NCBI RefSeq assembly: GCF_029227855.1
Contig: NZ_CP074356.1
Direction: 5' to 3' (one strand)
DNA from: Escherichia coli
Lineage (GTDB): Bacteria > Pseudomonadota > Gammaproteobacteria > Enterobacterales > Enterobacteriaceae
Length of the DNA: 64,000 bases
The notes below the pieces were generated by a model. It ran no database searches. It was not told the origin of the DNA and worked only from the letters and a program-made list of their open reading frames with translations. Positions 42,471 through 46,347 of this stretch are shown one piece after another (position 1 is the first letter of the stretch; each line of letters opens with the position of its first letter). Made by a program: the position numbers and the translations under genes.

Positions 42471-43292
42471 TTGTTTAAAGCAAATCATGTTCCGGTATTA
42501 ATGTATCATCATGTCAGCCATTGCCCAGGACTGGTTACACTTTCTCCCGAGACATTCCGGAAACAAATGAAATGGTTGGCTGAAAACAACTGGAAAACAC
42601 TGTCATCAGATGAACTGGAGTTTTTTTATCGGGGCGGAAAACTTCCCCGTAAAAGCGTTATGTTGACATTTGATGATGGATACCTTGACAACTGGTTTCA
42701 GGTATATCCTTTATTAAACGAGTTTAATCTCAAGGCACATATTTTTTTAATTACCAGTTTTATTGGAAATGGTCCGGTTCGTCACTCTCCTGGAAAGGAA
42801 TATTCTCATCGCGATTGCGAACATCAAATAGCAACCGGGAATGCTGATAATGTTATGCTTCGCTGGTCTGAAGTGAACGAAATGTTGCAATCTGGTCTGG
42901 TCGAATTTCATGTTCATACACATACTCATACACGTTGGGATAAAAAGTTCACTTCACGAGAAGAACAGTGTAAACATCTTCGGCAGGACTTATTGAGCGG
43001 GAGAGAATATTTAAAAAATATGACAGGAAAATGCAGTAAACATTTGTGTTGGCCGGAAGGTTATTATAACAAGGATTATATTCAGATCGCTGAAGAACTT
43101 GGATTCCATTATTTATATACAACAGAAAGAAGAATGAATGCTCCTGCTAAAGGAACTACACGGATAGGAAGAATAAGCACCAAGGAACGGGAAAATTGCG
43201 TATGGCTGAAAAGACGACTTTTTTATTATACAACACCGTTTTTTTCATCGTTGCTGGCCCTTCATAAGGGGCCAAGATTACCGGATGACTAA
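42471..43292 (+). CDS. shf: polysaccharide deacetylase-like protein Shf
   Basis: NodB-type TFDDG motif; first gene of a shf-capU-virK-msbB2-like cluster. Confidence 0.7.
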   Translation: MFKANHVPVLMYHHVSHCPGLVTLSPETFRKQMKWLAENNWKTLSSDELEFFYRGGKLPRKSVMLTFDDGYLDNWFQVYPLLNEFNLKAHIFLITSFIGNGPVRHSPGKEYSHRDCEHQIATGNADNVMLRWSEVNEMLQSGLVEFHVHTHTHTRWDKKFTSREEQCKHLRQDLLSGREYLKNMTGKCSKHLCWPEGYYNKDYIQIAEELGFHYLYTTERRMNAPAKGTTRIGRISTKERENCVWLKRRLFYYTTPFFSSLLALHKGPRLPDD

Positions 43293-43294
43293 TA

Positions 43295-44383
43295 ATGAAT
43301 ATACTATTTACGGAATCATCACCGAATATAGGTGGTCAGGAATTACAGGCTGTTGCTCAAATGAAGGCCCTGAAGAAAATGGGGCATTCAGTTCTGCTTG
43401 TCTGCAGGGAGAACAGCAAAATTGCTTTTGAAGCCAGTAAGTTTGGAATTGATATCACATTCGCGTTATTTCGAAACAGTCTTCACATTCCTACTGTATG
43501 GAGATTACTCGGAATAGTTCATAGTTTTCAGCCCGATGCAATCGTTTGTCACAGTGGACATGATAGTAATATTGTTGGTTTGGTACGGTTTTTTACCTGG
43601 AAACATCCATTCAGAATTATCAGGCAAAAGACATATTTGACACGAAAAACAAAATTTTTTTCAATAAATCATTTTTGCGATGAGGTGATTGTTCCCGGAA
43701 CAAATATGAAGACACATCTGGAGCAGGAAGGATGTCGAACTCGGATTACTGTTGTGCCTCCTGGCTTTGATTTCCAGGAATTATACGTTGATTCCCGAAA
43801 CAGTTTGCCTCCGAGTGTTCTTTCCTGGCTGGCGTCCCGAAGAGGATGCCCCGTAATTGCTCAGGTAGGAATGTTGCGCCCGGAAAAAGGGCACGAATTT
43901 ATGTTGAATTTACTGTTCCATTTAAAAATGAATGGACGACAGTTCTGTTGGTTGATTGTGGGGTCTGGTTCACCTGAACTGCGGGAACATTTACAGTATC
44001 AGATTGACAGTATGGGCATGCATGATGATGTTTTTATTGCTGACAATGTTTTTCCTGCCGCCCCCGTATATCGGGTTGCCAGTCTGGTGGTTCTGCCTTC
44101 AGAAAACGAATCTTTTGGTATGGTGCTGGCAGAAGCATCGGCATTTTCTGTGCCTGTAGTGGCCACTCAGATTGGTGGAATCCCTGAGGTTATTCAGAAC
44201 AACCAGACCGGGACATTGTTACCAGCAAGTAATAAGCACGCATGGATGTGCGCCCTGAATGATTTTTTTAATGACCCTGGGCGTTTTTATCAGATGGCTC
44301 GCCTGGCAAAACAGGATATAGAAGAGCGGTTTGATATTAATAAAACTGCGTTAAAAATACTCACATTAGCGAAGCAAAAGTAA
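43295..44383 (+). CDS. capU: family-1 glycosyltransferase (CapU/RfbU-like hexosyltransferase)
   Basis: C-terminal ENESFGMVLAEASAFSVPVVAT (EX7E-like motif). Confidence 0.7.
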   Translation: MNILFTESSPNIGGQELQAVAQMKALKKMGHSVLLVCRENSKIAFEASKFGIDITFALFRNSLHIPTVWRLLGIVHSFQPDAIVCHSGHDSNIVGLVRFFTWKHPFRIIRQKTYLTRKTKFFSINHFCDEVIVPGTNMKTHLEQEGCRTRITVVPPGFDFQELYVDSRNSLPPSVLSWLASRRGCPVIAQVGMLRPEKGHEFMLNLLFHLKMNGRQFCWLIVGSGSPELREHLQYQIDSMGMHDDVFIADNVFPAAPVYRVASLVVLPSENESFGMVLAEASAFSVPVVATQIGGIPEVIQNNQTGTLLPASNKHAWMCALNDFFNDPGRFYQMARLAKQDIEERFDINKTALKILTLAKQK

Positions 44384-44387
44384 CAAT

Positions 44388-45338
44388 ATGTTTTCTATAA
44401 GTAACTTATCATTTATCGGTTTCCTTAAAAGGATTATTTTTTCCTCAGATTCACTACCGGGGAAGTGGGAACACAGAAAATTTCGGTTCATGTACATTTT
44501 GCGATGTTCTATAAATCCGGTTGTCAGTATTCGATATTATTATGAACTGCGTTCCTTGCCGTGCATTGAGGATATTCTGGCAATACACCCCACGTTGCCA
44601 GCAAGAATTCATCGCCCTTATTTGCATAAAGGGGGGCGCGCCTGGACCCGTGGACAATATATTCTTGAGCATTATCGCTTTGTGCAAAATTTGCCAGAAA
44701 AATATTCTAAATTTTTGTTTCCACAAAAATCGGTATCATTAGTCCAATTCATCGGGAAAGATGGAGAGAATTTTGATATCCAGTGTTCTCCCAGTGGTTT
44801 TGACCGGGAAGGAGAGTTGATGTTGTCATTGTTTTACAATAAAACAGTTATTGCCCGGTTAACATTTTCAGTCATTCTGACTCAAAATGGACACATTGCT
44901 TTTATTGGCGGATTACAGGGAGCCCCTAAAAATACCGGACCTGATGTTATTCGGTGCGCAACCCGGGCCTGTTATGGGATTTTCCCAAAACGGATTATTT
45001 TTGAAGCATTTTGTGCGTTGATGAAAGCTTGCAATATCTCTGAGTGTCTGGCAGTCAGTGAGCACAGTCATGTTTTCCGGCAATTGAGATACTGGTATCA
45101 GAAACGCAAAACCTTTGTTGCGGTCTATAGTGATTTCTGGGAGTCTGTAGCAGGAAAAACCTGTGGTGACTGGTACAGATTACCAACCCAGGTGATTCGA
45201 AAGCCGCTAAGCGATATAGCCAGTAAAAAACGCTCTGAGTACCGAAAACGATACGCTTTGCTGGATTATATCCATGAAACTACTATCCGCTCTTTGGATG
45301 CATATCCTGTACACTCAGAACATCAGAATTTAAATTAA
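44388..45338 (+). CDS. virK: VirK/YbjX-family protein (DUF535)
   Basis: 316 aa; family recalled from its position between capU and msbB2. Confidence 0.7.
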   Translation: MFSISNLSFIGFLKRIIFSSDSLPGKWEHRKFRFMYILRCSINPVVSIRYYYELRSLPCIEDILAIHPTLPARIHRPYLHKGGRAWTRGQYILEHYRFVQNLPEKYSKFLFPQKSVSLVQFIGKDGENFDIQCSPSGFDREGELMLSLFYNKTVIARLTFSVILTQNGHIAFIGGLQGAPKNTGPDVIRCATRACYGIFPKRIIFEAFCALMKACNISECLAVSEHSHVFRQLRYWYQKRKTFVAVYSDFWESVAGKTCGDWYRLPTQVIRKPLSDIASKKRSEYRKRYALLDYIHETTIRSLDAYPVHSEHQNLN

Positions 45339-45402
45339 GGTTTGATGTATTCTCTGAATAAAACAGTAATGATAATTTTGGTAGAGGCATTCGCACTAAA
45401 TA

Positions 45403-46347
45403 ATGAAAAAATATAAATCTGAGTTTATTCCTGAATTTAAGAAAAATTACCTTTCCCCTGTTTACTGGTCTACATGGTTCCTTTTGGGAATGATTGCAGG
45501 TATTTCAATGTTTCCCCCTTCATTCAGAGATCCTGTCTTGGCAAAAATAGGGCGTTGGGCGGGCAGATTGAGCAAAAAAGCTCGTCGCAGGGCGACGATT
45601 AATTTATCGCTTTGTTTCCCAGAAAAGAGTGATACAGAACGGGAAATAATTGTCGACAAAATGTTTGTCACAGCATTGCAATCCATAGTGATGATGGCAG
45701 AACTGGCAATTCGTGGTCCGGAAAAGTTCCAGAAACGAGTGTTCTGGAAAGGCCTCGAAATTCTTGAGGAAATTCAACACAATAATAGAAATGTGATTTT
45801 TCTGGTTCCCCATAGCTGGAGCGTGGATATTCCTGCAATGTTGCTGGCAGCTCAGGGAAAAAAAATGGCCGCCATGTTTCATCAGCAACGAAATCCAGTG
45901 ATTGATTATGTCTGGAATTCAGTACGGCGTAAATTCGGGGGGCGCTTACATGCCCGGGAGGATGGGATAAAACCATTTATTCAGTCAGTACGCCAGGGAT
46001 ACTGGGGATATTACCTCCCAGATCAGGATCATGGTCCTGAATACAGTGAATTTGCTGATTTTTTTGCGACCTATAAAGCGACATTACCAATCATTGGACG
46101 TCTGATGAACATCAGTCAGGCTATGATTATACCACTTTTCCCGGTTTATGATGAAAAAAAACATCTACTGACTATTGAAATTCGGCCACCAATGGATGCT
46201 TGCATTGCCAGCGCGGACAATAAAACGATTGCCCGACAAATGAACAAAACAGTGGAAATTTTGGTGGGGCCACATCCGGAACAGTATGTCTGGGTTTTAA
46301 AATTGTTAAAAACACGCAAATCAAACGAAGCGGACCCGTACCCTTGA
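45403..46347 (+). CDS. msbB2: lipid A secondary acyltransferase (LpxM/MsbB paralog)
   Basis: HX4D acyltransferase motif (PHSWSVD); 314 aa. Confidence 0.8.
   Translation: MKKYKSEFIPEFKKNYLSPVYWSTWFLLGMIAGISMFPPSFRDPVLAKIGRWAGRLSKKARRRATINLSLCFPEKSDTEREIIVDKMFVTALQSIVMMAELAIRGPEKFQKRVFWKGLEILEEIQHNNRNVIFLVPHSWSVDIPAMLLAAQGKKMAAMFHQQRNPVIDYVWNSVRRKFGGRLHAREDGIKPFIQSVRQGYWGYYLPDQDHGPEYSEFADFFATYKATLPIIGRLMNISQAMIIPLFPVYDEKKHLLTIEIRPPMDACIASADNKTIARQMNKTVEILVGPHPEQYVWVLKLLKTRKSNEADPYP

Follow-up and report, generated by a model that had tools for sequence, protein, structure and literature searches.

The virulence plasmids of Shigella carry an operon of four genes, shf, rfbU (capU), virK and msbB2, for which the operon structure and virK phenotypes have been described (PMC4267944; PMC12562796). 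The operon is regulated by PhoP, as was found by electrophoretic mobility shift assays, footprinting and lacZ fusions, with low Mg2+, acid and polymyxin as inducing signals (PMC5775216). MsbB2 is a second lipid A myristoyltransferase (PMC2808357 supplement; PMC12562796). Chaudhuri et al. (2010; PMC2808357) described shf, rfbU, virK and msbB2 (Ec042-4769 to -4772) on the chromosome of enteroaggregative Escherichia coli (EAEC) 042, near the fec genes (Ec042-4776 to -4782). Here we analyze a stretch of 64,000 nucleotides (nt) of E. coli DNA from RefSeq assembly GCF_029227855.1, contig NZ_CP074356.1, referred to as a whole as the window. We assign a probability of about 0.9 to the reading that positions 42471-46347 are a chromosomal shf(pgdA)-capU(rfbU/wabB)-virK-msbB2 operon, controlled by PhoP/PhoQ and situated in a leuX (KpLE2-type) island beside fec, and that this is the same locus as in EAEC 042. 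The cluster is a known and common locus with a chromosomal arrangement on record for EAEC 042 since 2010, and it is ordinary in view of this record and of its occurrence in some 9% of the complete genomes of the species. A preliminary description of the window, which had likened the genes to the plasmid loci of Shigella and EAEC, overlooked that exactly this chromosomal locus had been published for EAEC 042 (PMC2808357).

Gene order, spacing and open reading frames (ORFs) were read from the window sequence, and families were assigned by Pfam and NCBIfam profile searches. The four ORFs (Table 1) are free of internal stops, run co-directionally on the plus strand and are tightly spaced with gaps of 2, 4 and 64 bp, and together with their Pfam domains they confirm the four gene calls, the coordinates and the order given in the preliminary description. 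The module comprises 4076 bp with a G+C content of 40.6%, compared with 57.3% in the adjacent fec operon. The ratio of non-synonymous to synonymous substitution rates (dN/dS) against the Shigella plasmid pINV is 0.16-0.35 across all four genes, which indicates purifying selection on them. The chromosomal position in the leuX island, also stated previously, is borne out by the tRNA-Leu(CAA) gene with a remnant of a P4-type integrase located in the window and by DNA that is foreign by composition. The cluster lies 11.9 kb from leuX, and fecIRABCDE is found immediately upstream of an insertion sequence (IS) of the IS911 family that precedes shf.

The chromosome of EAEC 042 is colinear with window 22327-51407 at 5.11-5.14 Mb with 99.4-99.7% identity, and 99.67% of nt are identical over 19 kb. 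Both have the four genes in the same order, an IS911-family element without an intron, an IS600 derivative encoding an identical 379-amino-acid (aa) transposase, fecIRABCDE, a BCCT transporter and a DUF2254 gene as neighbors, and the same leuX island. VirK is 100% identical, while there are 2 aa differences in Shf, 3 in CapU and 5 in MsbB2, and within the block there are point differences only, including the exchange G138S in MsbB2 of the window. In EAEC 042 the locus is 34 kb away from leuX, and the remaining island between leuX and the block is unlike that of the window. The core flank on the leuX-proximal side (window 56930-64000; ahr, yjgR, lptG side) is 93.3% identical to EAEC 042, versus 99.4-99.7% for the fec-shf-BCCT block, and the island block was therefore exchanged between lineages far more recently than the flank diverged. 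The same context is present in the chromosomes of strains E24377A, AST262 and WP8-S18. In a survey sample of 5426 complete E. coli genomes, the cluster occupies 522 chromosomal and 116 plasmid places; the right junction msbB2-IS66-IS600 occurs in 484 genomes (~9%, about one in eleven) and the left junction, joining a long IS911 to shf, in 416.

Table 1. Features of the shf-capU-virK-msbB2 locus and its flanks, with positions in the window.
Feature	Position	Strand	Description
Operon promoter/leader	42306-42470	+	PhoP box, candidate -10, Shine-Dalgarno sequence before TTG
shf/pgdA, CE4 polysaccharide de-N-acetylase	42471-43292	+	PF01522 Polysacc_deac_1, E 4e-28; 273 aa from TTG (RefSeq 280 aa)
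capU/rfbU/wabB/gtr4, GT4 (GT-B fold) glycosyltransferase	43295-44383	+	Glycos_transf_1 and Glyco_transf_4 (CAZy GT4); 362 aa, full length
virK, DUF535 (YbjX paralogue)	44388-45338	+	PF04393, E 2e-89, 300.1 bits over residues 26-298 of 316
msbB2, LpxM-type lauroyl-Kdo2-lipid IVA myristoyltransferase paralogue	45403-46347	+	PF03279 Lip_A_acyltrans, E 5e-96; 314 aa
Degenerate IS911-family element	~41060-42305	-	Left inverted repeat (IRL) 42292-42305 (TGAGGTGGCACACT on - strand); orfA/orfB remnants frameshifted
IS66-family left end, 82 bp, begins GTAAGCG	46382-46463	+	Cut by IS600
IS600 derivative	46464-47710	+	98% identical to pCP301 IS600
tRNA-Leu(CAA) leuX, island anchor	58230-58314	-	Degenerate P4-type integrase remnant adjoining

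The likeness to the plasmid loci, which had been claimed from the gene order, was substantiated by identity comparison. The operon of pCP301 from S. flexneri 2a is 94.9-96.0% identical on the nt level over window 42204-46381, with 268/280 identical aa in Shf (at the RefSeq length from 42450), 346/362 in RfbU, 295/316 in VirK and 300/314 in MsbB2. The Shigella plasmids pCP301 and pWR100 share with the window the gene order, the spacing, the PhoP box, the junction to an IS911 end upstream and the boundary at 46381, at 93-96% aa identity. In contrast to the window, their IS911 is cut to 102 bp, the leader contains 49 additional bp including the -10 element TAAATT, the codon at the annotated shf start is ATG instead of ATT, and the downstream neighbor is IS630 rather than IS66/IS600. 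Copies on plasmids of enterotoxigenic (ETEC) and other E. coli are 99.2-99.9% identical, those of the pETEC_74 (E24377A)/pCoo type 99.2-99.4% over the coding region with a truncated IS911 remnant; upstream of the genes, however, 277 bp of the plasmid copies are just 93.5% identical to the window. pETEC_74, the sole plasmid copy examined for both features, also has the ATT codon and the short leader. The ecf operon (ecf1-4) of pO157 contains the first, second and fourth gene families at ~68% nt identity and 60-62% query coverage, but its third gene encodes a cptA/eptC-like phosphoethanolamine transferase in place of virK. An assignment of the window cluster to ecf was thus rejected, as ecf is a much more distant paralogous operon.

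The IS bracket mentioned in the preliminary description is present, with the degenerate IS911-family element on the left and an IS66 fragment followed by a derivative of IS600, an IS3-family element, on the right. The orfA start of the IS911-family element has a 1-nt deletion, and RefSeq flags homologues as frameshifted with an internal stop; its IRL adjoins the shf leader at 42305/42306. The element is a mosaic, in which ~730 bp proximal to the IRL are of IS911 type and the distal ~520 bp of ISEc52/"IS911B" type. On the other side, homology to every plasmid copy ends at 46381, just before the IS66 fragment; the matching 82-85 bp are found directly upstream of an IS66 tnpA in plasmid NZ_CP109956. 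A second IS66-family copy at 26853-~29100 has a left end of the same sequence as the fragment, and E24377A has a further insertion of this IS66 between fecE and the IS911 element. The IS600 derivative has lost 17 bp at 46781/46782, and with them the A-rich site for programmed frameshifting, so that orfA and orfB are joined in one ORF of 379 aa (46528-47667); apart from the deletion there is 1 mismatch to the complete IS600 of strain 7/2. The fusion gives a full-length NCBIfam match to IS3 transposases and is identical to WP_000088357.1 in EAEC 042, E24377A, AST262 and WP8-S18. As a natural constitutive OrfAB fusion it could be hyperactive or a dead end. The IS911 element of E24377A, AST262 and WP8-S18 is interrupted by a group II intron (ltrA) at 41545/41546 that is missing from the window. 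A second, inverted intron copy lies in an IS near leuX (~54117-56416; Rfam match 56328-56414), and the window has only this leuX-proximal copy. Between the introns lies a segment of ~14.7 kb with the shf operon and the BCCT and DUF2254 genes, which WP8-S18 and AST262 have in opposite orientations.

An empty form of the locus bears on how the operon may have been gained or lost. In K-12 and in strain 7/2 window 41855-46463 is absent, and 41854, which is position 452 of the IS911-family element, directly adjoins 46464, the left end of IS600. This junction is found in 1251 of the 5426 genomes; it is flanked by fec on one side and, in strain 7/2, by BCCT-DUF2254 on the other. The KpLE2/leuX island of K-12 resembles the window in the leuX anchor, the fec operon, yjhV and the same IS911-family insertion followed by IS600 (99.4% identity), and differs from it by the empty allele, by an IS600 further cut by IS30D and by the missing BCCT/DUF2254 genes. 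Compared with K-12 IS911B-1, the window IS has 24 mismatches in IS positions 452-726 and 5 in 727-1246, and over positions 332-760 it matches K-12 IS911A, not IS911B/ISEc52. As this mosaicism lies beside the indel, homologous recombination between IS copies fits better than transposition. Most probably, a 4.6-kb presence/absence segment (41855-46463) bounded by the IS911-family element and IS600 has been swapped by homologous recombination between IS copies, and the simplest reading would be a two-crossover replacement with one crossover within the IS911-family element between 41469 and 41580 and the other in or beyond IS600. Another explanation is that the leuX island originally had the filled allele and that K-12-like strains lost the operon by an IS600-mediated adjacent deletion into the IS911-family element. 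In K-12 and strain 7/2 the left terminus of IS600 indeed abuts the IS911-family element exactly, which is the geometry expected from such an event; however, the 275 bp beside the junction differ at 24 sites and the next 520 bp at 5, while a clean deletion would leave the junction tract identical, so that an extra gene-conversion event is needed. We regard this explanation as doubtful, and on account of the 24-mismatch tract the view that K-12 arose from a window-type island simply by IS600-mediated deletion was downgraded.

Recombination between IS copies also has to be weighed against the IS-mediated capture proposed in the preliminary description. The window, pCP301, pETEC_74 and an IncF plasmid agree exactly in the junction between the IS911 end and shf; the IS end therefore travelled with the module, and judged from this identity the junction is ancestral to the module. 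Nearly all Shigella and E. coli plasmid copies retain a remnant of IS911 of 102 bp, truncated at window 42204, and share a further 137 bp of flank. The plasmid forms therefore constitute one derived lineage and not a simple source of the chromosomal form. The shared truncation makes the plasmid copies unlikely as direct source of the chromosomal copy, recombination of such a remnant with a resident IS911 being the alternative. A recent one-way capture, in which IS transposition moved the cluster as a composite transposon out of a virulence plasmid of pINV/pAA type, would agree with an IS-flanked module that is AT-rich (40.6% G+C amid 57%), with the near-identity of the plasmid copies and with the IS911-end/shf junction common to plasmids and chromosome. 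Yet the flanking ISs are of different families and degenerate or truncated, no target-site duplication could be identified, and the flanks thus do not form a composite transposon. Moreover, the plasmids with their shared remnant and common flank look derived next to a chromosome with the whole element, chromosomal copies exceed plasmid copies (522 versus 116), and the mosaic IS tract is a signature of homologous recombination. Such a capture is thus improbable. The earlier proposal is supported in so far as IS copies mark the points of exchange, but not as to the direction or the mechanism of the capture. The cluster does move between replicons, in whichever direction, as the block fecBCDE-IS911::IS30-shf-capU-virK-lpxM is found on one conjugative IncF plasmid. 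Among further records labelled as plasmids, NZ_CP060942.1 (21 kb, non-mobilizable) has the chromosomal fec-IS911-shf-IS600-BCCT context, and NZ_CP021680.1 (23 kb), AP026530.1 and NZ_CP128951.1 (655 kb) share the full-length IS911-shf junction; for these four records, excision as a circle, an artefact of assembly or an engineered origin may be considered.

Control by PhoP was judged from the leader of the operon. A PhoP box, TTGTTTATAAATTGTTGAT, is found at 42349-42367 and has one spacer change compared with the box of pCP301 shf, tTGTTTAtgaatTGTTgAt (PMC5775216 Table 5). A DNase footprint of PhoP was put at -115 to -81 from the shf start (PMC5775216), a numbering that disagrees with the Table 5 box of the same paper, found at -149 to -133 relative to the pCP301 ATG; the box was hence placed by sequence and the footprint numbering was disregarded. 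By alignment, the leader is 49 bp shorter than in pINV, and the deletion starts within the mapped -10 element TAAATT (PMC12562796). Its junction rebuilds a hexamer of the form TAnnnT, TAGTAT at 42379-42384, as a candidate -10 at the unchanged distance of 12 nt from the PhoP box. The short leader is common to the other chromosomal copies compared, the pEC11-5 record and pETEC_74. A sigma-70 consensus scan gave sites no more frequent than in shuffled sequences and missed the PhoP-type promoter, as is expected for a promoter without a -35 element. From the conserved box and a usable -10 at the same spacing, PhoP control of the chromosomal copy is most likely retained, although, with the -10 and transcription start site mapped in Shigella lost, regulation could differ quantitatively from that of pINV. 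The RefSeq start of shf lies at 42450, 21 nt upstream of the TTG, and the codon there is ATT in the window, WP8-S18, AST262, E24377A, pETEC_74 and the pEC11-5 record, and ATG in Shigella only; EAEC 042 was excluded from this comparison, since its start region did not match the search pattern. The TTG at 42471 appears at least as plausible a start, because it is preceded by the GGAGG-type Shine-Dalgarno sequence GGAGGGGG and is conserved with it in the E. coli copies and Shigella alike.

The fourth product scores above the cut-offs of both LpxM equivalog models (TIGR02208, 444.3 bits versus 336.05; NF006507, 521.7 versus 337) and is 70% identical to K-12 LpxM. The HX4D dyad noted previously is present as VPH137SWSVD142. 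Position 138, directly after the catalytic His (codon 45814-45816), is Ser in the window and, among the loci fetched, otherwise in E24377A only; K-12 LpxM, pCP301, EAEC 042 and the other copies fetched have Gly at the equivalent position, and G138S is the sole difference of the window from AST262 and WP8-S18 over 6.4 kb. From orthology, chromosomal MsbB2 is most likely active in myristoyl transfer. In strains with the cluster on chromosome and plasmid alike, msbB2 is intact on the chromosome but defective or missing on the plasmid: the gene is frameshifted in pETEC_74 (~7930-8900), and the pAA copy of EAEC 042 is without it (PMC2808357). These data bear on the idea that the chromosomal copy is a decaying and functionally silent remnant, for which one could cite the 49-bp promoter deletion, an annotated shf start changed from ATG to ATT, and the G138S exchange of MsbB2, each compared with the Shigella operon. 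Against this, the four ORFs are intact with the low dN/dS given above, the block is conserved to at least 99.7% in hundreds of genomes of different lineages, and ATT and the short leader recur on pETEC_74. In addition, the TTG start with its strong Shine-Dalgarno sequence is conserved, the deletion restores the hexamer 12 nt after the PhoP box, and it is the plasmid msbB2 that was lost where copies coexist. We consider silence of the chromosomal copy very improbable.

Regarding the other products, Shf is a carbohydrate esterase family 4 (CE4) protein by its PF01522 domain and by the Asp-Asp motif TFDDG (residue 66) and the metal-binding His cluster HVHTHTH (residue 147), which align with the deacetylase domains of PgaB, BpsB and IcaB. 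No N-terminal signal peptide was found in the 273-aa protein, and its scores are below the PgaB and IcaB equivalog cut-offs (TIGR03938, 120.7 bits versus 321.9; TIGR03933, 76 versus 248). It aligns from position 44 of the PgaB model PRK14582 (NF011177), with the signal/lipobox region and the C-terminal domain missing. Shf as an orthologue of PgaB or IcaB was therefore rejected. CapU has the two-domain GT-B architecture with the EX7E motif ESFGMVLAE at residue 272. Its Shigella orthologue SfGtr4 has glycosyltransferase activity and binds SfPgdA (PMC7355660), and a preprint assigns to WabB the placement of N-acetylglucosamine (GlcNAc) on heptose III of the R3 core (bioRxiv 10.1101/536201, citing Kaniuk 2004). 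For virK mutants, outer-membrane defects were reported (PMC4267944; PMC12562796).

By orthology to the genes of Shigella, O157 and EAEC, a functional model can be proposed. Low Mg2+, acid pH or cationic peptides would activate PhoP, which would bind the retained box and give rise to one four-gene transcript. MsbB2 would add a secondary myristoyl chain to lipid A in its penta-acyl form and back up the housekeeping LpxM, so that lipid A stays hexa-acylated. CapU/WabB would glycosylate the inner core of lipopolysaccharide (LPS), with GlcNAc on heptose III in R3-type cores, Shf would de-N-acetylate a GlcNAc-containing glycan of the envelope, and VirK, as a paralogue of YbjX, would help to maintain outer-membrane integrity. 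Tentatively, Shf and CapU/WabB may even form a cytoplasmic two-step pathway, in which GlcNAc is transferred onto heptose III of the LPS core and is then de-N-acetylated to glucosamine; Shf would in that case not be a deacetylase of peptidoglycan or poly-N-acetylglucosamine (PNAG) as published. Compatible with this pathway are the physical interaction of the Shigella orthologues (PMC7355660), the 2-bp gap between shf and the glycosyltransferase gene, a Shf protein without export signal and PgaB-specific parts, and the third gene of the paralogous pO157 operon encoding a phosphoethanolamine transferase for the LPS core. If the pathway exists, the PhoP-induced operon would give the core a positive charge, and MsbB2 would at the same time preserve the hexa-acylation of lipid A. 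An analogue is reportedly provided by WabH and WabN of Klebsiella pneumoniae, in work attributed to Regué et al. in 2005.

Several points weigh against the overall interpretation of the locus. The 49-bp leader deletion takes out the -10 element and transcription start site mapped in Shigella, and G138S in MsbB2 stands next to the catalytic His. Published work disagrees on whether Shf acts on a PNAG-like polymer, peptidoglycan or the LPS core, and the LPS core type of the host is encoded outside the window, which does not include the waa locus. Finally, the recombination scenario draws on two allele types, with an IS600-mediated adjacent deletion combined with gene conversion as the main alternative.

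Apart from the operon and its flanks, the window contains a defense-type cluster on the minus strand at 1334-10750. It comprises an SNF2 helicase (7859-10750) whose match is strong and DrmD/BrxH-like, two ORFs (6474-7853 and 4717-6399, corresponding to profile positions 1-458 and 486-1057) that together make up a split Type III-like methyltransferase, and a Type III restriction enzyme of 1126 aa (1334-4714); an HNH protein is encoded at 19-672. A full-length Ag43/Cah autotransporter adhesin (16130-19051, minus strand, 1991 bits) is located beside a GTPase-family gene (19348-20283, minus strand), and an Rfam match to IS102 RNA lies at 18995-19231. The region of the Ag43/Cah and GTPase-family genes looks like a typical CP4-type island module.

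The literature already covers the operon and its control by PhoP, MsbB2 as a lipid A myristoyltransferase and the chromosomal copy next to fec in the leuX island. For genome annotation, a practical point is that "lpxM" is called twice in genomes with the locus. In virulence-gene typing, capU, shf and virK are often scored as plasmid-borne markers of EAEC and Shigella, although they are chromosomal in most E. coli carriers (522 versus 116 places). The comparison of the filled and the empty allele, the empty form being the one carried in KpLE2 of K-12, provides a checkable example of how a virulence-associated operon of 4.6 kb can be swapped, with IS copies serving as portable homology.

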